From a virus (Duplodnaviria > Heunggongvirae > Uroviricota > Caudoviricetes): a DNA stretch of 16,579 nt. A program made the translations under genes and the position numbers. The stretch lies in IMG/VR virus record IMGVR_UViG_2721755721_000006; one strand, 5' to 3'. Positions 1 to 16,579 of this stretch are shown in pieces. Under the pieces are notes generated by a model. The model did no database searches, was not told the DNA's origin, and worked only from the letters and a program-made list of their open reading frames with translations. Positions within the stretch are counted from its first letter, which is position 1. Each line of letters begins with the position of its first letter.

Positions 1-210
1 ATGAAACACCGGACCTGGATCACTGAAGCTTTACGTCTTCACTTTGAAGAACATTTACCCCGGGTTGTGGCCGGGCGTCGCCTGAGTGTACCAAAATCAA
101 CAGTTTGTAGTATGTTCGTGCGCTTTCGGAGAGCTGGCCTTTCGTGGCCTTTGCCCGCAGGCATGTCGGAGCAGGAACTTGATGCCTGCCTTTACGGACA
201 ATTTTCCACG
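1..210 (+). pseudogene. IS21-family IstA transposase, N-terminal fragment (HTH region only)
   Basis: Translation of 1-210 (…RRLSVPKSTV…RRAGLSWPLP…MSEQELDA…) matches the HTH and GLSWPLP-type motif I remember from IS21 IstA N-termini. The rest of IstA and any IstB are absent. The frame runs on into an unrelated IS66 TnpA-like segment, so this is a remnant. Confidence 0.4.
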
Positions 211-255
211 GTACCAGTCGTACGTCCTGAAAGCACCGTTATATCCGAAGCCCCC

Positions 256-609
256 GTGGTAAAAAAACGTCCCCGGCGGCCCAACTTCCCTTATGAGTTT
301 AAAATCGCCTTAGTGGAGCAGTCACTACAGCCCGGAGCCTGTGTGGCGCAGATCGCCCGGGAAAACGGAATCAACGATAACCTGCTCTTCAACTGGCGCC
401 ATCAATACCGGAAAGGTGGCCTGCTGCCTTCCGGAAAAAATATGCCGGCACTGCTTCCCGTGACGTTAACGCCGGAGCCGGATAATAAAATCCCGGCCCC
501 CGCACAGGAACCAGAGCAGATAAATACACCGTCCGACAGTCTGTGTTGTGAGCTGGTTCTGCCGGCCGGAACTCTCAGGCTTAAAGGTAAACTGACGCCG
601 GCGTTATTA
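256..609 (+). pseudogene. IS66-family TnpA (orf1)-like remnant, cut at the IRR of the intact IS66 copy
   Basis: The peptide RPRRPNFPYEFKIALVEQSLQPGACVAQIARENGINDNLLFNWRHQYRKGG aligns directly with the intact IS66 TnpA at 2632-3057 (EPRKNYSNEFKLRMVELASQPGACVAQIARENGVNDNVIFKWLRLWQNEG). A possible GTG start lies at 256. Homology ends at 609, where the IS66 terminal repeat GTAAGCG begins. No tnpB or tnpC follows on this strand. Confidence 0.6.
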
Positions 610-610
610 C

Positions 611-634
611 GTAAGCGTCAACGGAGCACCGTAT
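611..634. repeat. IS66 terminal inverted repeat (tnpC-proximal end)
   Basis: GTAAGCGTCAACGGAGCACCGTAT, compared with the reverse complement of 3119-3142 (GTAAGCGTAAACTGACCGCCGTAT). Confidence 0.6.
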
Positions 635-640
635 TGACGC

Positions 641-2254
641 TTATTTATTGGTGAGTACTACGTTCCATGGCAGGAGTTCATCAACTCGGTTGGAAGGCCA
701 TTCCGGCAGTACGCTCAGGATATGGCGCAGATACGCTTCCGGATCGATACCGTTCAGACGGCAGGTGCCGATCAGCCCGTACAACAGTGCTCCACGCTCG
801 CCGCCGTGATCGCTGCCAAAGAACATAAAGTTTTTCTTTCCGAGACAGACTGCACGAAGCGCTCTTTCCGCAGCATTATTATCCGCCTCCGCCAGACCGT
901 CATCACTGTAATAACAGAGGGCATCCCACTGATTCAGTACATAGCTGAACGCTTCGCCCAGTCTGGATTTTTTCGACAGCGTACCATTCTTCTCCACCAT
1001 CCATTCATGCAGCGACGTCAGTAACACTTTGCTTCGCTGCTGCCTGACGGCAAGACGCTCTAACTCCGGTAATCCCCGTATTTCATCCTCGATGGCGTAC
1101 AGTTCACTGATTCGCTTCAGGGCTTCTTCTGCCGTCGCACTTTTGCTGCTGATGTATACATCGTGGATTTTTCGCCGGGCATGGGCCCAGCACGCAACTT
1201 CTGTCAGTGCACCACCTTCACGTTCTGCACTGAACAACCTGTCGTAACCTGTGAACGCATCCGCCTGCAGGATACCCCGGAAGGGGCGGAGGTGTTGCTC
1301 CGGGTGTTTCCCCTGCCGGTTCGGCGAGTACGCGAACCAGACCGCTGGAGGAGATGACGAACCCACATTGCGATCATCCCGGACATACGTCCAGATACGC
1401 CCTGTTTTCGCCTTTTTCTGACCCGGTGCCAGTACCTTTACCGGTGTGTCATCAGTGTGAACCTTGCGGGTGTTCATTACATAACGGTACAGGGCATCAT
1501 TCACCGGTGTCATTAACTGGCAGCACGCGTCAACCCAGTTGGAGAGTAAGGCCCGGCTCAGTTCGACACCCTGGCGGGCAAAGATTTCACTCTGACGATA
1601 CAGTGGCAGATGTTCGCAGTATTTTCCCGTTAACACGCGGGCAAGTAATCCGGGGCCCGCGATACCACGCTCTATCGGGCGGGACGGCGCCGGTGCTTCA
1701 ACAATACAGTCACATTTTGTACAGGCTTTTTTTACCCGTTCTGTGCGGATCACTTTCAGGGCACTGCTCACCAGTTCCAGCTGTTCAGCGCTGACTTCCC
1801 CCAGATAATCCAGCTCACCGCCACACTCCGGGCAACAGCTTTCTTCTGGCTCCAGGCGGTGTATTTCACGGGGAAGGTGTGCCGGTAACGGACGACGATG
1901 GCGCGACTGTCGCAACTGGCGGGGAACCTGAGGATCGTCTTCCCGCCCACTGTAACGATCGCTGTCCTGTTCACGTTGTTTCAGCAGAGCCTCAGCCAGT
2001 TCAACTTCACGACGCAGTTTTTCAGAACGGGTACCGAACAGCATCCGGCGCAGTTTTTCTATCTGAGCCCGCAGATGTTCTATTTCCCGTTCATCTTCTT
2101 CGATCTTTTCTTCGGCACGTGTCAGTGCAGAGCGCAGGAAGGCTTCCGTCTCTTCAACCAGACTCAGTTGCTGGTCTTTCTGACGGAGGGCTTCAGCCTG
2201 CTCAGAGAGCAACCTTTCCAGCTCTGCGATGCGAATGAGGTATTTCTGACTCAT
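641..2254 (-). CDS. tnpC: IS66-family transposase TnpC (537 aa)
   Basis: N-terminal coiled-coil/leucine-zipper region, a CPECGG…CTKCDC zinc-finger region and a long DDE-type core. Size and order match IS66 TnpC. Confidence 0.92.
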   Translation of the reverse strand: MSQKYLIRIAELERLLSEQAEALRQKDQQLSLVEETEAFLRSALTRAEEKIEEDEREIEHLRAQIEKLRRMLFGTRSEKLRREVELAEALLKQREQDSDRYSGREDDPQVPRQLRQSRHRRPLPAHLPREIHRLEPEESCCPECGGELDYLGEVSAEQLELVSSALKVIRTERVKKACTKCDCIVEAPAPSRPIERGIAGPGLLARVLTGKYCEHLPLYRQSEIFARQGVELSRALLSNWVDACCQLMTPVNDALYRYVMNTRKVHTDDTPVKVLAPGQKKAKTGRIWTYVRDDRNVGSSSPPAVWFAYSPNRQGKHPEQHLRPFRGILQADAFTGYDRLFSAEREGGALTEVACWAHARRKIHDVYISSKSATAEEALKRISELYAIEDEIRGLPELERLAVRQQRSKVLLTSLHEWMVEKNGTLSKKSRLGEAFSYVLNQWDALCYYSDDGLAEADNNAAERALRAVCLGKKNFMFFGSDHGGERGALLYGLIGTCRLNGIDPEAYLRHILSVLPEWPSNRVDELLPWNVVLTNK

Positions 2255-2284
2255 GACCGTTTTTATAATGCGGTCAGGAGTTTT

Positions 2285-2635
2285 TTACAACATTGTCAGT
2301 GAGTTACGGCTGGATGTTTTTGGCTGACGCCAGTCCAGCTTATCGAGGAGCATTGCCAGTTGCGAGCGGGTAATGGATACCTTGCCGTCACGTACCGCAG
2401 GCCAGATAAACTGGCCTTCCTCCAGGCGTTTGGTGAACAGGCACAGACCATCAGCATCAGCCCAAAGAATTTTGACGGTGTCACCCCGTCGGCCACGGAA
2501 GATAAACAGGTGACCGGAGAAGGGATTATCATTCAGCACATGTTGTACCTGTTCTCCCAGTCCGTTGAAGGATTTACGCATATCGGTAACGCCGGCAACG
2601 AGCCAGATACGGGTACCTGATGGGAGTGAGATCAT
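2285..2635 (-). CDS. tnpB: IS66-family accessory protein TnpB (orf2, 116 aa)
   Basis: MISLPSGTRIWLVAGVTDMRKSFNGL… is the hallmark IS66 Orf2 N-terminus. Its ATGA overlaps the tnpA stop. Confidence 0.92.
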   Translation of the reverse strand: MISLPSGTRIWLVAGVTDMRKSFNGLGEQVQHVLNDNPFSGHLFIFRGRRGDTVKILWADADGLCLFTKRLEEGQFIWPAVRDGKVSITRSQLAMLLDKLDWRQPKTSSRNSLTML

Positions 2636-3057
2636 CTTCCCCTCCCGGTCAGTTCACGGATCAACACTGTGAGCAGCTCTGGCGATGGATTTTCCAGCGT
2701 CATGTTACCGTGACGGAATTCCACCTTGCAGGAACTGGCACTGACTCTGGTCTGAGTGGAAGTGGATAAAGACGGCGCAATGGCCGCCACAGGTTCTTTC
2801 TGCTCATCCGGCGTTATTTCTACAGGTAATAATTCAACGCCAGTGTCAGAAGAGGTCGTTACCGGAAGACGCCGCGAAACACGCCCTTCGTTCTGCCAGA
2901 GCCTGAGCCATTTGAAAATAACATTATCATTGACGCCATTTTCACGTGCAATCTGTGCAACACAAGCTCCAGGTTGTGATGCCAGTTCCACCATACGAAG
3001 TTTGAATTCATTCGAATAGTTTTTACGAGGTTCTTTTCGCCAGTCCTGTAATTCCAT
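2632..3057 (-). CDS. tnpA: IS66-family accessory protein TnpA (orf1, 141 aa, HTH)
   Basis: First gene inside the tnpA-proximal terminal repeat. HTH segment QPGACVAQIARENGVNDN. ATG confirmed at 3055-3057. Confidence 0.9.
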   Translation of the reverse strand: MELQDWRKEPRKNYSNEFKLRMVELASQPGACVAQIARENGVNDNVIFKWLRLWQNEGRVSRRLPVTTSSDTGVELLPVEITPDEQKEPVAAIAPSLSTSTQTRVSASSCKVEFRHGNMTLENPSPELLTVLIRELTGRGR

Positions 3058-3118
3058 ACTTAGATGTCCGTCTATATCAGATGGGCGTCTAAGTTACCAA
3101 TTCTCGTCTGATGGCTAC

Positions 3119-3142
3119 ATACGGCGGTCAGTTTACGCTTAC
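3119..3142. repeat. IS66 terminal inverted repeat (tnpA-proximal end)
   Basis: Reverse complement is GTAAGCGTAAACTGACCGCCGTAT. It lies 85 bp upstream of the tnpA start. Confidence 0.6.
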
Positions 3143-3454: not shown

Positions 3455-4333
3455 TCAGACTGCAAGATCCAAGGGAAGATCAGAAATATCCTTTAATCTT
3501 TTACCATTAACCATCACGGAAAGCATGTCAGCTGCATCGCTGAGCCCCAGTATTTCAACTGCTGATATAAGTTCATAAAGCGCAAAATGATACACGCAAT
3601 CTATATCACCAGTACCAAGAGCAATAGACGCCAGACGACTTGGAGTAGGCTCAGCAGTAACAACCATTACATGAGGGAGATTTCCCTTACGGTTGCGAAT
3701 AAGATTTAATGCCTCAGAACGAGCATTCTGGGCCCGGTCGCTTCTTATTGTCCATTTGCAGGAAATACTTGCGTGTAATATTGGTTTCCCACCATTCGAA
3801 CTCCTGAGAGCTGACATGCGGGTAACAGAATCATCCACCAGTAATTCAGGACTGTTGATAACTTGATCACATTCAGGTTCTCTTTCAACAATAATATCTG
3901 GTGAAATCGTATAATCACTCCCCAGTGCAGCAGCTAGCTGAGGATTACTTTTTGCAGCACTATCCAATGCTATAAGATGGGCATATTGTTCATATTTAGC
4001 TATCTCTAATCTGTTTCTACCAGAAACCTGATGTACATTCCATTTTCCAGGGCGTAAGTGGCTGAGTTTAAAAAAGGTTTTTTCTATAAACTCTGCGCAG
4101 ATACTCTCAAACTGATTACCAGATGTTTGCCCTGCAACACGTTCACCAATCGTTTCAGCCTGCAAGAAGCGAGCAATTTCTCTTGCTATAGCTTTACTGT
4201 TTTTGTTACTGCTATCTGCGTTACTAACAACTCCGGCAGTATTAATTGTGAGCGTATTCAGTAACAATTGGGCATGAAACTCCTTTCTGGCTTCAGCAAA
4301 ACCAACTATGCTGTCAACCAAATCTCCATTCAT
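3455..4333 (-). CDS. Type II restriction endonuclease, Cfr10I/NgoMIV-like PD-(D/E)xK family (292 aa from the ATG at 4333)
   Basis: Immediately downstream of the m5C methyltransferase gene. The sequence TGA-AGGAAATCCAGAA-ATG gives a Shine-Dalgarno 9 nt before the ATG at 4331-4333. The protein has PD (in TISPDIIVERE), then SCK 47 residues later, then E 14 residues after the K. The six-frame ORF extends to 4468 but that part overlaps the M gene 3' end. Confidence 0.72.
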   Translation of the reverse strand: MNGDLVDSIVGFAEARKEFHAQLLLNTLTINTAGVVSNADSSNKNSKAIAREIARFLQAETIGERVAGQTSGNQFESICAEFIEKTFFKLSHLRPGKWNVHQVSGRNRLEIAKYEQYAHLIALDSAAKSNPQLAAALGSDYTISPDIIVEREPECDQVINSPELLVDDSVTRMSALRSSNGGKPILHASISCKWTIRSDRAQNARSEALNLIRNRKGNLPHVMVVTAEPTPSRLASIALGTGDIDCVYHFALYELISAVEILGLSDAADMLSVMVNGKRLKDISDLPLDLAV

Positions 4334-4346
4334 TTCTGGATTTCCT

Positions 4347-5471
4347 TCAGGCTGCTTGACTATTCTTACTGATGTTATTCTTATACCGTCCCTGCAAAAC
4401 TCCATACACATATTGTGCGATTTTTGCCGCAAATAGCGGTGGAACAGCATTCCCGATCTGCTTTGCAATCTCAGTTTTTGAACCGGTAAAAATGAAATTA
4501 TCAGGAAAAGACATTAATCTCGCTGCCTCACGATGAGTTATTGGCCGATCCTCTTCCGGATGTAAATATCGCCCTTTCTCCGGTTTGAAAAACTCAGTAC
4601 GAATCGTTACTGAAGGTCTGTCCCACCACAGACGTCCAAACAAATCGGTCCCTCCAGATTTCTTTTTTAGCCAGCACGCCGGGGTTATATCAGGTCTTTT
4701 TTTCTGTAAATCGAAACGGTTACCTCCTGGTGGAACCGCTTTATATCGCTCCAGAGAAACAGGTGTGGGATTACGCCCAAAATGTAAGTTCAGCGGAGGA
4801 AGTTCATTACGAATATCAGTTCCAACAGGAGCAGGTAAGTCACCAATTGCATCACGCGTACAGACCCATTCAGGCAAAGCGACATCCTTATCAGGGGAAC
4901 GATGCGTTGGTGCTGGCGGGAACGCCGGAATACTATGCACATCGAAGAGTTCTCGTTTGATACCGATTGCTATCGTTCGTTTTCTTGTCTGAGGTACTCC
5001 ATAGTCAGCAGTATTCAACACCATTGGATTAAGCAGAATAAAGCCCATGGATTTCGCTCTAAACGTAATGTCCGCAAACTCATCGCTTATCAGCAATCCG
5101 GGGACATTTTCCATGACGAACATACAAGCCCTTGAACGCTCAATGACATCCATATAAGGCTCCCACAATGCTCTTCGGTGATCACCATAACGATTCTTAT
5201 TCAATAAACTGAATCCCTGACACGGGGGGCCACCTATGACCACATCAGCCTCAGGAACAGTATTGCTGGATGCCCACTCCTCAATATTTGCCTGAACTCC
5301 ATGCAAACCAAAATTGGCATTGTAGGTATTTATAGCTGCAGCATTATTATCAATAGCAAGGATACTTTCAAAGTAGTCAGACATCTCTCCATGAAGAAAA
5401 CCATAAGATAATCCACCTGCCCCACAAAAGAGGTCTATCACTCTGAATTTATTTAATTCTTTCATCCGCAT
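4347..5471 (-). CDS. DNA (cytosine-5)-methyltransferase (374 aa)
   Basis: Canonical m5C methyltransferase motifs in order: FCGAGG (I), GGPPCQGFS (IV, catalytic Cys), ENV (VI), QTRKR (VIII), GNAVPP (X). There is no N-terminal HTH extension. Confidence 0.93.
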   Translation of the reverse strand: MRMKELNKFRVIDLFCGAGGLSYGFLHGEMSDYFESILAIDNNAAAINTYNANFGLHGVQANIEEWASSNTVPEADVVIGGPPCQGFSLLNKNRYGDHRRALWEPYMDVIERSRACMFVMENVPGLLISDEFADITFRAKSMGFILLNPMVLNTADYGVPQTRKRTIAIGIKRELFDVHSIPAFPPAPTHRSPDKDVALPEWVCTRDAIGDLPAPVGTDIRNELPPLNLHFGRNPTPVSLERYKAVPPGGNRFDLQKKRPDITPACWLKKKSGGTDLFGRLWWDRPSVTIRTEFFKPEKGRYLHPEEDRPITHREAARLMSFPDNFIFTGSKTEIAKQIGNAVPPLFAAKIAQYVYGVLQGRYKNNISKNSQAA

Positions 5472-5554
5472 CCATATGCCTCAGATTAATGTTGAGCGTC
5501 TTACAGGACGCGTAATGTTAACTGGGGCTTTCTCTATCTGCCTTTTGGTGTTCA

Positions 5555-5579
5555 TGCCTGAGGCAGACAGCCTCAGGCA
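5555..5579. repeat. Perfect 9-bp inverted repeat (TGCCTGAGG-N7-CCTCAGGCA) between queH-like and the methyltransferase gene
   Basis: Stem 5555-5563 pairs with 5571-5579 around the loop CAGACAG. No U-tract follows on either strand, so it is not a canonical terminator. It sits about 85-100 bp upstream of the M start. Confidence 0.4.
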
Positions 5580-5649
5580 CCCGCAGCAATTCTACTTAAC
5601 TCACGTCACCTCGCCAATATGAAATCAATCAGAAAGGTGATCCATAAAA

Positions 5650-6336
5650 TCACTCCTTCTCTTCTTTTCCGTAGTGGAGTTGGCCAATTTTGATAAGAGG
5701 GCGTCCCTGAGATTTGCGGTGTAGATTGGTATCGCGCAGAGAATACACACAGCCACAATATTCCTGCTGATAGAATTTTTCGCGCTTGCTGATTTCAATC
5801 ATACGGGACGAGCCGCCCTGCTTGCGCCAGTTATAATCCCAGTACACCATACCCGGATAATGCGCAACAGCTCGCCGCCCACACTCGTTAACCTGCTGCA
5901 TATTTTTCCAGCGTGAAATGCCCAGTGAACTACTGATCACACTGAAACCATTTTCAGCAGCGTACAACGCTGTCCGCTCAAAACGCATGTCAAAACACAT
6001 GGTACAACGGATCCCCCTCTCAGGCTCCCATTCCATTCCTTTGGCACGTTCAAACCAGTTGTCGGTGTCGTAATCAGCATCGATAAACGGCACGCCGTGT
6101 TGTTCAGCAAAGCGAATATTTTCATCCTTACGAATTAAATACTCTTTCTGAGGATGAATGTTCGGGTTGTAGAAAAAGATGGTGTAGTCGATTCCCGAGG
6201 CCTGAAGCGCCTCCATCACTTCACCGGAACATGGAGCACAGCAAGAGTGCAGTAGTAGTTTGTTTGCCCCGTTTGGAAGCTCCAATTTAGGCCGTTTGAA
6301 ATCAGCAATAGTCATAAATATTTTTATTGGGGTCAT
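5650..6336 (-). CDS. queH: QueH-like protein (DUF208; putative epoxyqueuosine reductase family)
   Basis: Shows the DUF208/QueH signatures [24 protein letters not shown] and QEYCGCVY. An alternative ATG start at 6315 would shorten the N-terminus. No obvious Shine-Dalgarno at either start. Confidence 0.75.
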
Positions 6337-10317: not shown

Positions 10318-10794
10318 ATGCTTAGTGGTAAAGACTTAGGCCGAGCGATAGAGCAGGCCATTAACAAAAAAATTGCATCAGGAGCCGTCAAATCAAAGGC
10401 GGAAATCGCACGTCATTTCAAAGTCCAACCACCATCAATCCATGACTGGATTAAGAAAGGTTCGATAAGTAAAGACAAACTTCCAGAACTATGGCGTTTC
10501 TTTTCTGATGTGGTTGGTCCAGAGCATTGGGGGCTTAACGAATACCCCATACCAACCCCATCCACTTCAGATACAAAAAGTGAACTTTTAGACATAAACA
10601 GCCTTTATCAAGCCGCCTCTGATGAAAAAAGAGCAATTGTGGCTTTCCTCTTATCTGGAAATGCTACGGAGCCTAGTTGGGTTGATCATGACGTTCGCGC
10701 CTACATTGCCGCAATGGAAATGAAGGTAGCTAACTATCTGAAAAATCAAGAATCAAAACGGAAAAGCCAGAACATCACCAAGACAGGAACTTAA
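10318..10794 (+). CDS. Prophage repressor, RacR-like (158 aa, HTH, no recognisable LexA-type autocleavage domain)
   Basis: Divergent from the Cro-like gene. TAGGAGA lies 10 nt before the ATG at 10318. HTH segment KSKAEIARHFKVQPPSIHDWIKKGS. Flanked on both sides by the same operator dyads. Confidence 0.72.
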   Translation: MLSGKDLGRAIEQAINKKIASGAVKSKAEIARHFKVQPPSIHDWIKKGSISKDKLPELWRFFSDVVGPEHWGLNEYPIPTPSTSDTKSELLDINSLYQAASDEKRAIVAFLLSGNATEPSWVDHDVRAYIAAMEMKVANYLKNQESKRKSQNITKTGT

Positions 10795-10887: not shown

Positions 10888-10931
10888 ATTAGGCATAGCC
10901 TATTGACAAGTAATTAGGCATTTCCTATAGT
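10888..10931 (+). promoter_or_regulatory. PL-like sigma70 promoter with overlapping operator dyads (OL analogue)
   Basis: TTGACA (10903-10908), a 17-nt spacer, then TATAGT (10926-10931). Operator dyads TAGGCATAGCCTA (10890-10902) and TAGGCATTTCCTA (10915-10927) have the same core as the OR sites. Confidence 0.6.
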
Positions 10932-11763: not shown

Positions 11764-12331
11764 TAGCTAACCAACGAAGCTAAGGTTGGTAATTAAGGAG
11801 TTCTCCACGGGTGAGGTGGAGTGCGTGCGCCGGACACGGGTGAGCATCCGGCACTGACAGTTTACTGAAAGGATATTTCCCTGAAAAGTCAGACCATAAC
11901 GCGAAAGCGCACGGCGAGGTAGCTGGTTCATAGATAGCCTGTCGTTAAATTTTCGTCGACCGTGCGCTTCCGGTTGTGGCAATCCGCGAAATGGCGCGGC
12001 GGTAAGTATGGCGGGGTTATTCCTTCCCCCGTTGAGGACACCGGGTTGTCAGGTTGACCATACGCTTAAGTGACAACCCCGCTGCAACGCCCTCTGTTAT
12101 CAATTTTCTGGTGACGTTTGGCGGTATCAGTTTTACTCCGTGACTGCTCTGCCGCCCTTTTTAAAGTGAATTTTGTGATGCGGTGAATGCGGCTGAGCGC
12201 ACGCGGAACAGTTAAAACCAAAAACAGTGTTATGGGTGGATTCTCTGTATCCGGCGTTAATTGTTAACTGGTTAACGTCACCTGGAGGCACCAGGCACTG
12301 CATCACAAAATTCATTGTTGAGGACGCGATA

Positions 12332-12520
12332 ATGGAAACGTTATTACCAAACGTTAATACGTCTGAAGGTTGTTTTGATATTGGTGTTCTGCTCAGTAAC
12401 CGGGAGTTTACTGAAGATGCCATTAATATGAGGAAATATGAGCCTTATCTGCTCAATGATAATTCCATACTTTCCCGAATTGCTCTTCTTGAACTTGGTA
12501 TTTTCGGAGAACGTCAATGA
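12332..12520 (+). CDS. Small hypothetical protein (62 aa), first gene of a translationally coupled pair
   Basis: ATG at 12332 with AGGA 7 nt upstream. Its stop overlaps the next start in an ATGA at 12517-12520. The six-frame ORF begins further upstream at a GTG at 12227 that has no Shine-Dalgarno. Confidence 0.5.
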   Translation: METLLPNVNTSEGCFDIGVLLSNREFTEDAINMRKYEPYLLNDNSILSRIALLELGIFGERQ

Positions 12521-12705
12521 CTTCAGCATTTGCACTGATGATGACGGTTTTTCTTATAACGGGTGAATCACAGAATGTGATTACCGGAATTTATGCAAGT
12601 AAAGAATCCTGCCTCCAGGCAAGAGACGAGCAAAAAATTTCTGGTGAATGCCTCCCGCTAAAAAAAGTATCGCTGTACCTGAATAACGAAACACCGGCTG
12701 GATAA
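12517..12705 (+). CDS. Small protein with an N-terminal hydrophobic signal/anchor segment (62 aa)
   Basis: GGAGAA 5 nt before the ATG. The N-terminus MTSAFALMMTVFLITG is hydrophobic, and the hydrophilic C-terminal part has two Cys residues. Confidence 0.5.
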   Translation: MTSAFALMMTVFLITGESQNVITGIYASKESCLQARDEQKISGECLPLKKVSLYLNNETPAG

Positions 12706-12800: not shown

Positions 12801-15272
12801 ATGAGTAAAGTCTTTATTTGCGCCGCCATTCCTGACGAACTGGCAACAAGGGAAGAAGGCGCTGTGGCTGTAGCCACAGCTATTGAAGCTGGCGACGAAC
12901 GCCGTGCTCGAGCAAAATTTCACTGGCAATTCCTGGAACATTATCCGGCTGCTCAGGACTGCGCTTATAAATTTATTATCTGCGAGGATAAACCTGGCAT
13001 ACCCCGCCCTGCCCTCGATTCATGGGATGCTGAATATATGCAGGAAAACCGCTGGGATGAGGATTCTGCTTCTTTTGTCCCGGTTGAGACTGAATCCGAT
13101 CTGATGAACGTCACTTTTGACAAGCTGGCCCCTGAAGTACAGAACGCTCTCATGGTTAAGTTCGACACATGTGAAAACATCACCGTTGATATGGTTATTA
13201 GCGCACAGGAATTGTTGCAGGAAGACATGGCAACATTCAACGGACATATCGTTGAAGCGTTGATGAAAATGCCAGAAGTTAACGCCATGTATCCGGAGCT
13301 TAAGCTGCATGCCATCGGGTGGGTTAAGCATAAATGTAAGCCTGGTGCCAAATGGCCCGAAATTCAGGCAGAGATGCGCATCTGGAAAAAACGTCGCGAA
13401 GGTGAACGCAAGGAAACCGGAAAATACACGTCTGTTGTTGATCTCGCCCGCGCCAGAGTCAATCAACAGCACACTGAAAATTCAACAGGAAAAATCAGCC
13501 CGGTCATTGCTGCCATTCATCGCGAATACAAGCAGACATGGAAAACACTGGATGACGAACTGGCCTACGCTCTCTGGCCTGGTGATGTGGATGCCGGAAA
13601 CATTGACGGCAGCATCCATCGCTGGGCAAAAAATGAAGTTATCGACAACGACCGCGAAGACTGGAAGCGTATCTCGGCATCAATGCGCAAACAGCCTGAT
13701 GCCCTTCGCTACGACCGCCAGACTATTTTTGGCCTTGTCCGTGAACGTCCGATCGACATTCACAAAGACCCTGTGGCACTGAACAAATACATTACTGAAT
13801 ACCTGACTACAAAGGGCGTGTTTGAAGATGAAGGAACAAATCAGAGCGCAACTGATACTCTCTCGTCGTCAGTACCAGAAACTGATGCAGTGGAAACGGC
13901 AATTCCGGACAACGAAAAAACCGAATGCAAAGTGGAAGTCGAACCATCTGTAGAGCGTGAGGGGCCGTTCTACTTCCTCTTCACCGACAAGGATGGCGAA
14001 AAATACGGTCGCGCAAACAAACTTTCTGGTCTGGATAAGGCACTGGCTGCCGGGGCTACTGAAATCACGAAAGAAGAATATTTCGCCCGCAAAAACAGTA
14101 CATACTCAGGTTCACAACAAAATACTGGTGCATCTGACACGACCGCACAACCAGGGCCGGTAAAAGTTACCGCTGACGAAGTAAACAAAATTATGCAGGC
14201 AGCCAATATCAGCCAGCCTGACGCCGATAAGTTGCTTGCTGCCTCTCGCGGAGAATTTGTTGCAGGGATTAGCGACCCGAATGATCCGAAATGGGTTAAG
14301 GGGATCCAGACCCGCGATTCTGTAAACCAGAACCAGCATGAATCGGAACGGAACTACCAAAAAGCGGAACAAAACAGCCCAAATGCGTTACAAAACGAGC
14401 CAGAAACGAAACAGCCTGAACCAGTGGCGCAACAGGAAGTGGAAAAAGTCTGCACCGCCTGCGGTCAGACCGGCGGCGGCAACTGCCCTGATTGTGGCGC
14501 AGTGATGGGCGACGCAACATACCAGGAAACATTCGATGAAGAGTATCAGGTTGAAGTTCAGGAAGATGATCCGGAGAAAATGGAAGGCGCTGAACATCCA
14601 CACAAGGAGAACACTGGCGGCAATCAGCATCACGATAGCGATAATGAAACTGGCGAGACGGCAGATCACTCAATTAAGGTGAACGGTCATCAAGAAATCA
14701 CATCCACCAGCAGGACGTGTGACCATCTAATGATCGACCTTGAAACCATGGGAAAAAATCCTGATGCCCCGATCATCTCAATAGGTGCAATATTTTTCGA
14801 TCCGCAAACCGGAGATATGGGACCGGAATTTAGTAAGACTATTGATCTGGAAACTGCTGGCGGAGTCATTGATCGGGACACCATTAAATGGTGGCTTAAG
14901 CAATCACGCGAAGCGCAATCTGCCATTATGACCGATGAAATCCCGTTAGATGATGCACTGTTACAATTGCGGGAATTTATCGACGAAAACTCCGGTGAAT
15001 TTTTTGTTCAGGTCTGGGGTAACGGTGCAACTTTCGACAACGTGATTTTACGCCGTTCATATGAACGGCAGGGGATCCCCTGCCCGTGGCGTTACACCAA
15101 TGATCGCGATGTAAGAACGATGGTTGCTCTGGGACTGGTGATGGATTTCGACGCAAGAACGACTATTCCATTCGAAGGTGAACGCCATAACGCTCTGAAC
15201 GATGCACGTTACCAGGCGAAATACGTTTCAGCCATCTGGCAAAAACTGCTCCCGAGTCAGGCTGATTTTTAA
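12801..15272 (+). CDS. Large prophage exonuclease (823 aa): N-terminal region of unknown function, acidic low-complexity linker with an internal zinc ribbon, C-terminal DnaQ-like DEDDh 3'-5' exonuclease domain
   Basis: The C-terminal ~185 aa carry Exo I (LMIDLETMG), Exo II ([13 protein letters not shown]) and Exo III ([14 protein letters not shown]-x4-D) motifs. [17 protein letters not shown] zinc ribbon lies around 14447-14500. The gene sits where RecE sits in Rac-type prophages. Confidence 0.85.
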
Positions 15273-15339
15273 TGTTCAACCCATATCGCCGCCCACCAGC
15301 TATAGTGGCGGCGGTCATGCTGTAAAGGCACGTGACCAC

Positions 15340-15582
15340 ATGTACGAATTAACTCTATCTCCAGCAGAGATTAAAGAGATCACGAAATACGAGCGATACA
15401 CAAAACAGCAACACCAGTTAAGACTGCACGGCATCCCATTTGTAATCGGCCCTAAAAACGAACCCATAGTTCTCCGCAGGGATATTCCACACGGTCTGAC
15501 AACGATGCCAAAAACATCTGAACTGTTTTCTGCTGAACCCGATTTTGAGGCGCTGAACAATGGGAAGACCAAGAAAAAATAA
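15340..15582 (+). CDS. xis: Excisionase-like protein (80 aa)
   Basis: The N-terminus MYELTLS… resembles lambda Xis (MYLTL…). The gene overlaps the integrase start by 23 nt, as lambda xis does with int. The upstream Shine-Dalgarno is weak. Confidence 0.55.
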   Translation: MYELTLSPAEIKEITKYERYTKQQHQLRLHGIPFVIGPKNEPIVLRRDIPHGLTTMPKTSELFSAEPDFEALNNGKTKKK

Positions 15583-16579
15583 AAAAGATAATGTACTGCC
15601 ACCGCGGGTTAGATCGAATGGTTACAGTTACGTGTGGAAACCCGAAGGAAGTACAAGAAGTATAGGGCTAGGAAGAGTGCGGAAAACCAGCGTAGCTAAA
15701 GTCTGGCAAAATTATGAACTGGAAAAAGCAAAACTCCACAACATAATGACCGTAGCTAAATTATGGCACATGTTTATGGACTCCCCTGCATTTACAGAAC
15801 TGGCCCCCCGAACCCAAAAAGATTATCGACAACATCAGAAGGCGTTGCTGATGGTATTCGGAAAAGTGCTTGCTGATAATGTCAAAACTGAGCAGGTAAG
15901 AATTTTCATGGATAAACGAGGGCTTGAGAGCAAGACCCAGGCAAATCATGAACTGGCAAGCCTGAGTCGAGTATACGGGTGGGGATATGAGCGTGGGTAT
16001 GTGAAGAATAACCCATGCAAAGGAGTCAGAAAATTCTCTCTTAAAGCCCGCACTGTTTACATCACCGATGAACAGTATGCGGCGATATATGCGGAAGCAA
16101 TTCCACAGTTACGCATTGCAATGGAGATTTCCTATCTCTGTGCGGCAAGACTCGGTGATGTGCTTGAGTTGAAATGGCAGGATATTATGGATAAAGGGAT
16201 CTACATTGAGCAAAACAAAACCGGCACCAAACAAATCAAGGAATGGTCACCGCGATTACGTACAGCGATCCAGTTAGCCCGAAATGTATCTTCCTGTACA
16301 TGCGAATATGTGATCAATACAACCAAAGGCGGGAAAGTCATAGCTAAAACGCTGAATAACTGGTGGAATCAGGCTAAACGCGCAGCCGAGCAAAAAGTTG
16401 GCGTTCCGTTCGGGTGCAATTTTCACGACATAAAAGCCAAGGGGATCTCAGATTACGAAGGCAGCAGTCGCGACAAACAAATTTTCAGCGGGCATAAAAC
16501 AGAAAATCAGGTGTTGATTTACGATCGTAAAACAAAAATCACACCAACACTGGATTTGCCGCTCGTGGTTAGCAAGTAG
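15560..16579 (+). CDS. int: Lambda-family tyrosine integrase (339 aa)
   Basis: N-terminus MGRPRKNKKDNVLPPRVRSNGYSYVWKP…GLGR resembles lambda Int. ARLGDVLELKWQDI matches the lambda Int box-I region (QRVGDLCEMKWSDI). The C-terminal part carries an FSGHKTENQVLIY-type His…Tyr segment. The stop codon is the last 3 nt of the window. Confidence 0.9.
   Translation: MGRPRKNKKDNVLPPRVRSNGYSYVWKPEGSTRSIGLGRVRKTSVAKVWQNYELEKAKLHNIMTVAKLWHMFMDSPAFTELAPRTQKDYRQHQKALLMVFGKVLADNVKTEQVRIFMDKRGLESKTQANHELASLSRVYGWGYERGYVKNNPCKGVRKFSLKARTVYITDEQYAAIYAEAIPQLRIAMEISYLCAARLGDVLELKWQDIMDKGIYIEQNKTGTKQIKEWSPRLRTAIQLARNVSSCTCEYVINTTKGGKVIAKTLNNWWNQAKRAAEQKVGVPFGCNFHDIKAKGISDYEGSSRDKQIFSGHKTENQVLIYDRKTKITPTLDLPLVVSK

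Follow-up and report, generated by a model that had tools for sequence, protein, structure and literature searches.

The window (the whole stretch of DNA that was analysed: 16,579 nucleotides (nt), IMG/VR virus record IMGVR_UViG_2721755721_000006, Caudoviricetes) includes a gene of the ydfE type that encodes a protein of 823 amino acids (aa). This is very probably a modular RecE-family protein of phage DNA metabolism, in which a DexA/DnaQ-like 3′-5′ exonuclease head takes the place of the 5′-3′ head and of RecT. The function assigned to it, tentatively, is that of a lytic-cycle DNA exonuclease that trims 3′ ends and works with host RecBCD and RecA. The open reading frame (ORF) starts with ATG and has the limits and length given in an earlier note, made on this DNA from its letters. 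The gene and its modules are listed according to their position.

12801-15272, plus strand: whole gene (ORF and translation); RecE scaffold and DEDDh exonuclease, full-length ydfE type.
12801-13568, plus strand: module N1, aa 1-256; equals the YdfE fragment of the K-12 prophage Qin; predicted alpha/beta at aa 1-97 and helical at aa 100-206.
13533-13829, plus strand: module N2a, aa 245-343, helical; common to RecE (aa about 278-336) and to Rad52-fusion proteins (BLASTP, phmmer module map).
13953-14105, plus strand: module N2b, aa 385-435; small beta-beta-alpha-beta-alpha domain with the motif GPFY...GRANK...EI (alignment, AlphaFold 2 (AF2)).
14211-14450, plus strand: RecE-like conserved segment, aa 471-550 (RecE alignment, partial match to NCBIfam NF007259).
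14451-14495, plus strand: zinc ribbon C551-x2-C554-x7-C562-x2-C565 (motif search; aligned to RecE CNACGQTGGDNCPDC).
14496-14708, plus strand: acidic linker, aa 566-636, probably disordered (net charge -12 over aa 561-600).
14724-15239, plus strand: DEDDh 3′-5′ exonuclease domain, aa 642-813, DexA/Rv2179c-like (Pfam PF16473, PDB match, motifs).

The earlier note had described the N-terminal region as being of unknown function. This description is set aside: aa 1-256 are homologous to ydfE (97% identity to the K-12 Qin pseudogene) and aa 262-625 to RecE of the Rac prophage (alignment with RecE 278-591; BLASTP, E=5e-62). Identity to RecE 454-588 is 76% (102/135) over aa 474-622, zinc ribbon and acidic linker included. 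The match to NCBIfam NF007259 (RecE equivalog) is partial: 283.8 bits for a cut-off of 1269, with just profile positions 271-602 of 877 being matched. Homology to RecE extends no further than aa 625, immediately ahead of the DEDDh domain; this is the head-swap junction. Judged from its sequence, the protein is a relative of RecE (a chimera whose scaffold was kept and whose head was exchanged), not a mere positional stand-in. The zinc ribbon and the acidity of its surroundings, both claimed in the earlier note, are real, and the ribbon is also found in RecE; the middle spacer is x7, not x8 as the note had it.

The head was assigned as follows. PF16473 (Rv2179c-like) covers aa 642-813 (E=1.4e-65; 220.7 bits for a cut-off of 27; profile positions 2-177 of 177), and the catalytic pentad is complete: D646-L-E648, F-D746-N, H796-x4-D801. 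With a score far above threshold and all catalytic motifs present, the C-terminal DEDDh domain seen in the earlier note is placed inside the DEDD(h) superfamily. Among solved structures, T4 DexA (8kel; E=9e-7 over aa 643-783) is the nearest in sequence; it is the sole PDB match at E<=1, the Rv2179c chain being absent at that level. The nuclease domain of RecE gave no significant alignment with aa 637-823 (a spurious local one, 19/61 identities), and tblastn of RecE 600-866 did not find a PD-(D/E)xK head in the window (E=0.81). The head is of the DEDDh class and is predicted to act 3′-5′, the polarity of the characterised members of the family. A stand-alone DEDDh-head homologue is found in phage mEp460: gp26 (L006:5998-6570), 190 aa, 60% identical, encoded directly upstream of xis. 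No annotated annealase is present in the annotated stretch of ~12.5 kilobases (kb) around gp26.

The gene is functional and under purifying selection, because the ratio of nonsynonymous to synonymous substitution rates (dN/dS) is low and the ORFs are intact (78/80 viral loci). Across 72 alleles, dN/dS is 0.22 overall, 0.08-0.19 in every folded module and 0.6-2.8 in linkers. By module: N2a, 0.17; N2b, 0.08 (lowest in the protein); zinc ribbon, 0.09; acidic linker, 0.91; DEDDh domain, 0.18. N2a and N2b are predicted by AF2 with a local confidence (pLDDT, predicted local distance difference test) of about 87 and about 88, respectively. Eleven N2b residues are invariant in 72 sequences that are 29-96% identical: G388, P389, F390, Y391, G403, R404, A405, N406, K407, E421, I422. 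N2b is flanked by disordered acidic linkers, and its motif is kept between proteins that are just 29-47% identical overall. The full-length gene is found in 3534 of 5426 complete Escherichia coli genomes (65%), with a median of 2 matching places per genome; E. coli copies among the homologues listed are 88-97% identical to the window protein. Phages Tritos and vB_EcoS-813R8 carry it in the same operon.

The protein belongs to a mosaic family. When 1.84 billion representatives (50%-representative set) were searched exhaustively with aa 1-640, just 246 relatives came up, and modules were mapped on the long ones. According to the phmmer map, the family shuffles an N1 (YdfE-type) or RecE-type N-terminus, N2 and/or the zinc-ribbon segment, and one of three heads. 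Head 1 is the PD-(D/E)xK nuclease of RecE (also Pfam DUF3799). Head 2 is the DEDDh nuclease. Head 3 is a domain without a Pfam match at threshold, a Rad52-fold annealase. One protein, P0128, has the sequence of K-12 RecE over aa 1-350 (100% identity) and remains about 80% identical as far as aa 591, where a DEDDh head takes over; it reads as a natural, clean, in-frame head swap (RecE 1-591 plus DEDDh). The precomputed Pfam families PF27430 and PF27432 are listed on both DEDDh and Rad52-fusion proteins, and therefore must cover the N1/N2 scaffold. Rad52-fusion proteins carry the NCBI name "exodeoxyribonuclease VIII". They probably correspond to the nuclease-less "RecE-2" of PMC12315714. No separate nuclease or annealase gene was found in 80 Rad52-fusion loci. 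A homologue of lambda Gam lies immediately upstream of the Rad52-fusion gene in two of the loci (L192:5166-5462, L193:5166-5462), which suggests that at least some of these scaffolds are part of genuine Rec modules that also counter RecBCD.

The gene contents of loci with different heads were compared on 160 viral contigs: 80 IMG/VR loci with close relatives of the window gene (N1-type), and 80 found with the RecE-N-terminus/DEDDh chimera. The surveyed loci are related and the two nuclease heads belong to different operon lineages, so the counts are not counts of independent events. Within 8 kb of the gene, no RecT, Bet, Erf, Rad52-like, lambda Exo, Gam or Abc was found in the 80 N1-type DEDDh loci; annealase, lambda Exo, Gam and Abc were likewise found nearby in 0/43 RecE_N-type DEDDh loci. 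Among the 37 loci with a PD-(D/E)xK head, recT is immediately downstream in 36/36 evaluable ones, the last being cut by the contig edge. The same recE-recT pairing is found in SPN3UB and HK225. An annealase is thus encoded at 0/123 DEDDh loci versus 36/36 evaluable PD-(D/E)xK loci, and its absence is systematic, not a local accident. DEDDh heads and recT alternate strictly in this survey, and the unit of exchange is therefore "nuclease head plus recT" versus "DEDDh head alone". These counts make the standard mechanism (exonuclease plus annealase) unlikely, in agreement with the earlier proposal of a role different from that of RecET.

The window itself conforms to the survey. Its gene occupies the slot that holds recE-recT in K-12 Rac, as the note had stated, and the stop codon is separated from xis by 67 nt. 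The note's claim that no annealase gene lies between this gene and xis extends to the whole window: tblastn with RecT (three types), Red-beta, Erf, Rad52-like, lambda Exo, Gam and Abc1/2 gave no homologue (best E=0.06, short stretches). A recombinase partner encoded elsewhere was sought in the complete genome of phage Tritos (46 kb), where no annealase, Gam or Abc was found; an annealase elsewhere in the phage is accordingly rejected for Tritos. The operons also differ according to the head. PD-(D/E)xK genes are found in Rac-type operons (racC, ydaE and kilR in 37/37) and DEDDh genes in Qin-type ones: dicB and ydfD are linked upstream in 115/123 DEDDh loci, i.e. 78/80 N1-type loci (where they are directly upstream in the 78) and 37-38/43 RecE_N-type loci. 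The immunity and integrase modules vary among the 80 N1-type loci.

DEDDh loci are rich in Chi sites, with about 8 times the number in RecET loci. Two of these bracket the DEDDh-coding cassette in the window and are co-oriented.

14704-14711, minus strand: Chi site (GCTGGTGG) at the junction of linker and DEDDh domain, codons S635-T636-S637.
15293-15300, minus strand: second Chi site, 21 nt past the stop codon; found in about 30/80 related loci.

The junction Chi lies ~30 nt past the end of RecE homology and is kept in 73/80 N1-type and 39/43 RecE_N-type DEDDh genes; the bracketing or junction Chi may have driven or promoted the exchange of heads. In total, 3 Chi sites were counted in the window, each of them on the minus strand, versus 0.49 expected (3 were reached in 4/200 shuffles). 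The complete Tritos genome has 11, of which 9 are co-oriented; its shuffled versions have 1.3 on average and 5 at most. The two DEDDh groups have 0.32 and 0.30 Chi per kb, RecET loci 0.032 and the loci of Rad52 fusions 0.087; scrambled octamers, used as a control, occur about 0.03 times per kb. When the gene itself is left out, the densities are 0.25-0.27 (DEDDh) versus 0.041 (RecET) per kb. Every DEDDh locus has at least one Chi, and 92-96% of their Chi are in one orientation; 27/37 RecET loci are without any. A 2025 survey of 314 lambdoid phages (PMC12315714, Genome Res) reports DnaQ-like 3′-5′ nuclease genes in or near Rec modules, often beside int. According to the same source, 22% of lambdoids have no Rec module and have many Chi, and phage LLS grows better with RecBCD. 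The shared scaffold, the Rad52 fusions, the Chi-rich, Gam-less context and this published class of lambdoids point to DNA-end or recombination metabolism with host RecBCD.

The gene is the last one before xis in a left operon whose elements are as follows.

10903-10931, plus strand: probable early-left promoter TTGACA-17-TATAGT, downstream of racR (consensus match only, 11/12).
12106-12157, plus strand: DicF small RNA (sRNA), between ydfC and dicB (Rfam RF00039; 76.7 bits for a gathering score of 48).
12332-12705, plus strand: dicB (12332-12520; Pfam DicB, E=2.7e-36) and a ydfD-like DUF1482 gene (12517-12705; E=1.5e-14).
15340-16579, plus strand: xis (DUF4224; 15340-15582) and tyrosine integrase gene (15560-16579) (Pfam; NCBI annotation pipeline (PGAP) on a 98.8% identical locus).

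The consensus scan upstream of the gene gave no other strong promoter-like site on the plus strand, and none between ydfD and the gene; no plus-strand terminator-like site was found before the gene. The counterparts in K-12 Qin have the same gene order and orientation. We take them, from EcoCyc, to form one operon repressed by DicA. The gene is expected to be silent in lysogens and to be switched on after induction or infection, like the lambda red genes. The prophage is a Rac/Qin mosaic, because its left operon is Qin-type (ydfC, DicF, dicB, ydfD) while its repressor (10318-10794) is RacR-like.

The proposed action of the protein can be divided into four steps. After induction or infection, the gene would be transcribed with dicF-dicB-ydfD from the repressed early-left promoter. 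The scaffold would then guide the protein to the ends of phage DNA or to intermediates of recombination, as is presumed for the RecE nuclease and the Rad52 annealase. There, the head would strip nucleotides from the 3′ ends of DNA. Lastly, the enzyme would condition or edit 3′ ends within a RecBCD/RecA strategy of recombination and replication, rather than in single-strand annealing; this strategy is proposed because there is no annealase, no RecBCD inhibitor and many correctly oriented Chi. The identities of the domains, the mosaic architecture, the annealase exclusivity, the Chi enrichment and the purifying selection are shown by the sequence data; that DNA is the substrate, that the scaffold targets ends and that the enzyme cooperates with RecBCD are the parts that we infer.

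Several points weigh against this function. The ends of lambda-type cos sites are 5′ overhangs, which a 3′-5′ exonuclease lengthens and does not blunt. No DNA-binding fold is recognisable among the N-terminal domains. The family PF16473 is named after an RNase (Rv2179c). The association with Chi may reflect lineage, the operons being of Qin type in one case and of Rac type in the other. According to PMC12315714, 3′-5′ exonucleases generally counteract homologous recombination, because they destroy the 3′ tails on which RecA depends; the DnaQ nucleases near int are not counted there as Rec-module genes. No experimental study of the protein or of a close relative was found in the searchable literature.

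A broader form of the same proposal is doubtful in our judgement: the RecE-type scaffold would be a delivery platform for swappable heads, and its DEDDh version would mark an unrecognised phage recombination module that uses RecBCD, Chi and RecA. For example, 3′ ends would be edited so that RecBCD can load or so that Chi-made tails are controlled. If this holds, the label "Rec-less" would be wrong for the Chi-rich lambdoid phages.

Other functions were weighed. The roles put forward in the earlier note (host takeover, anti-defence, defence) find no support here: the PADLOC hit is generic only, the gene lacks its own promoter-like site and lies downstream of dicB in the early-left operon, and W152 of DexA, one of two residues proposed for recognition of modified cytosine, aligns with a Thr. 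Among them, defence of the HREX type (superinfection exclusion) is improbable and is taken first. The DexA-like head would degrade incoming phage DNA containing 5-hydroxymethylcytosine (5hmC), as is reported for EcD, a plasmid-borne E. coli homologue of DexA that digests T4 DNA but not unmodified DNA and confers protection from T4 (PMC12153337). The window head is in the same family as DexA, and genes of dicBF operons are prophage accessory genes. The residues proposed for 5hmC recognition in DexA give a divided picture. W152 aligns with T766 (HMMER and MAFFT; W763 sits 3 residues upstream), unlike in the stand-alone gp26 of mEp460, which retains Trp at this position. The other proposed residue, D169, is matched to D782 by HMMER only, and the position equivalent to D90 is ambiguous. 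EcD is short, stands alone and starts with MIDTET at the Exo I motif, whereas the window protein is a fusion to a RecE scaffold. The match in PADLOC-DB v2 is just PDLC01247, a generic Cas-associated DEDDh entry (19.3 bits, E=3e-4). Furthermore, the gene comes after dicB (which encodes a cell-division inhibitor) and would normally be off in a lysogen, because the early-left operon is presumed to be repressed and no promoter-like site belongs to the gene itself.

Host takeover by scavenging is slightly less probable still. In this alternative, fragments of host or competitor DNA would be degraded to nucleotides after induction, as by T4 DexA downstream of endonucleases; host DNA scavenging is listed among the established roles of DexA in PMC12153337. 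The DexA-like head fits this role, as does co-expression with the host-directed DicF, DicB and YdfD (in K-12: cell-division inhibitor, lysis protein). However, the operon encodes no endonuclease partner, and neither the selected 640-aa RecE-type scaffold nor the strict alternation with the recE head plus recT is explained. Moreover, no temperate lambdoid phage is known to degrade the host chromosome.

Anti-defence, as proposed in the earlier note, is very improbable. The head would destroy host defence nucleic acids with free 3′ ends: multicopy single-stranded DNA of retrons, reverse-transcribed cDNAs, or oligonucleotide signals. Early expression and 3′-5′ exonuclease chemistry are compatible with this; no resemblance to a known anti-defence protein was seen, recombination proteins have the scaffold in common with it, and the gene is nearly ubiquitous in E. 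coli prophages whatever the context. An RNA exonuclease of the RNase AS/Rv2179c kind, acting for example in 3′ trimming of the dicF-dicB operon RNA, deserves just as little credence. PF16473 is defined by the exoribonuclease Rv2179c of Mycobacterium tuberculosis, many copies are named "3′-5′ exoribonuclease" by PGAP, and DicF, an sRNA that needs processing, is encoded in the same operon. However, the PDB matches at E<=1 are to DexA (a DNA exonuclease), not to Rv2179c, the scaffold is shared with the DNA exonuclease RecE and with a DNA annealase, and processing of DicF would go on in K-12 though ydfE is disrupted there.

Annealing in trans has scarcely any probability. The protein would make 5′ overhangs that are annealed spontaneously or by RecT or Bet of co-resident prophages. 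E. coli usually holds several lambdoid prophages (median of 2 matching places per genome), and the scaffold of RecE, an enhancer of linear-linear recombination, is kept; no annealase is encoded in the 46-kb Tritos genome or near any of the 123 DEDDh loci, and exonuclease-annealase pairs are normally specific and adjacent (PMC11611040). A decaying remnant in a cryptic prophage, suggested by the IS2 truncation of the K-12 Qin copy and by an IS66-family insertion elsewhere in the window prophage, is next to impossible and is rejected, given the 78/80 intact ORFs, the dN/dS of 0.08-0.19, the presence in Tritos and vB_EcoS-813R8 and the 3534 genomes with a full-length copy.

The left part of the window includes other elements (names of the restriction, methylation and QueH genes are from PGAP of the 98.8% identical locus).

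5402-5582, minus strand: sok-like antitoxin RNA (Rfam RF01794; 61 bits for a gathering score of 59); overlaps the gene of the cytosine methyltransferase in its 5′ end region.
5606-5798, minus strand: ORFs of 50-57 aa; a hok-type toxin ORF may be near the sok-like RNA.
3455-5471, minus strand: NgoMIV-family type II restriction endonuclease gene (about 3455-4333) and DNA cytosine methyltransferase gene (4347-5471).
5650-6336: QueH-like gene, adjoining the restriction-methylation pair.
1-3141: IS66-family element (ISEc23-like) within this interval; three minus-strand ORFs (2632-3057, 2285-2635, 641-2254).
1-654, plus strand: partial transposase ORF with HTH_Tnp_1.

The prophage is broken by the IS66-family element and the transposase ORF, left of a hypothetical gene that is truncated; the insertion is absent in the best-matching genomes.

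Part of this is already known: the gene family is annotated, DnaQ-type nucleases near int were described in lambdoids (2025), and DexA-like enzymes are known. The window protein matches PHROGs phrog_2082 ("exonuclease") over its full length (823/823), and PGAP/NCBI names are "exonuclease" or "3′-5′ exonuclease", many copies being called "3′-5′ exoribonuclease". The earlier interpretation is partly supported; it had missed that the protein is a true RecE relative with a different head and that the gene is common and already annotated. The searchable literature yielded no mention of the fusion to a RecE scaffold, of the mosaic with three heads, of the strict alternation with recT or of the association with Chi-rich, Gam-less phages.

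The gene is among the most widespread prophage genes of E. coli, being present in about two-thirds of complete genomes, and it touches two open questions. The first is the role of the roughly 600-aa non-catalytic part of RecE, which boosts the linear-linear recombination used in direct cloning. The non-catalytic part is credited with this enhancement in the review PMC11611040, where the N-terminal region of RecE is still called "of unknown function". The existence of three natural heads argues that the scaffold is a targeting or partner-binding platform, and the natural chimeras are ready-made for testing its role. The second is the recombination-dependent growth of lambdoids without an annealase or a RecBCD inhibitor; the DEDDh head is a candidate accessory factor, because it alternates with the recE head plus recT and tracks Chi-rich genomes. 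In addition, many database entries named "exodeoxyribonuclease VIII" would have the opposite polarity or no nuclease, and new heads on the RecE scaffold could serve as tools for recombineering and in vivo cloning.

The protein and its locus are compared below with known systems. Rv2179c/RNase AS: the window domain matches the PF16473 model over its full length, whereas Rv2179c is a stand-alone mycobacterial exoribonuclease without a PDB-level sequence match to the window protein. EcD: it belongs to the same DexA-like family, is from E. coli and is the sole experimentally tested bacterial or prophage member in the searchable literature. It was tested from a plasmid only (PMC12153337), and its comparison with the window head is by description. 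The 17-mer of its forward primer gave chance matches and one Hydrogenophaga homologue over GTDB genomes, and the 22-mer of its reverse primer gave none in metagenomes; the EcD gene was probably codon-optimised. T4 DexA: D7, E9 and D119 (catalytic residues as listed in PMC12153337) align with D646, E648 and D746, and H-x4-D is found in both. DexA is a stand-alone protein of 227 aa from a virulent phage and has extra loops (PDB 8kel/8ken), whereas the window head is tethered to a 640-aa scaffold.

Lambdoids with a DnaQ-like nuclease gene, often next to int, and lambdoids with no Rec module and abundant Chi (PMC12315714): the window prophage and Tritos fit both descriptions by their gene content and Chi, as read from sequence. 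The accessible text does not mention the RecE-scaffold fusion, the alternation with recT or a link between DnaQ nucleases and Chi density. Rad52 fusions (Klebsiella, Salmonella and Enterobacter prophages): they share the N1 and N2 modules (29-47% identity) and the GPFY...GRANK motif; they differ by an annealase-fold head, the lack of a nuclease and, in most members, the lack of the zinc-ribbon segment. RecE (Rac, exonuclease VIII): it occupies the same early-left slot upstream of xis-int and has a homologous middle, ribbon and linker. Its head is a PD-(D/E)xK 5′-3′ nuclease with RecT as a partner, whereas the window protein has a DEDDh head and no RecT; its N-terminus is replaced in the window protein by the YdfE-type N1 (first 256 aa); and its locus is a Rac-type operon, whereas the window gene is in a Qin-type one. 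ydfE of K-12 Qin: IS2 interrupts this copy past codon 256, and everything downstream is lost from it, nuclease included; it is otherwise the same gene, at the same position and with the same upstream neighbours (ydfA-C, dicF, dicB, ydfD).

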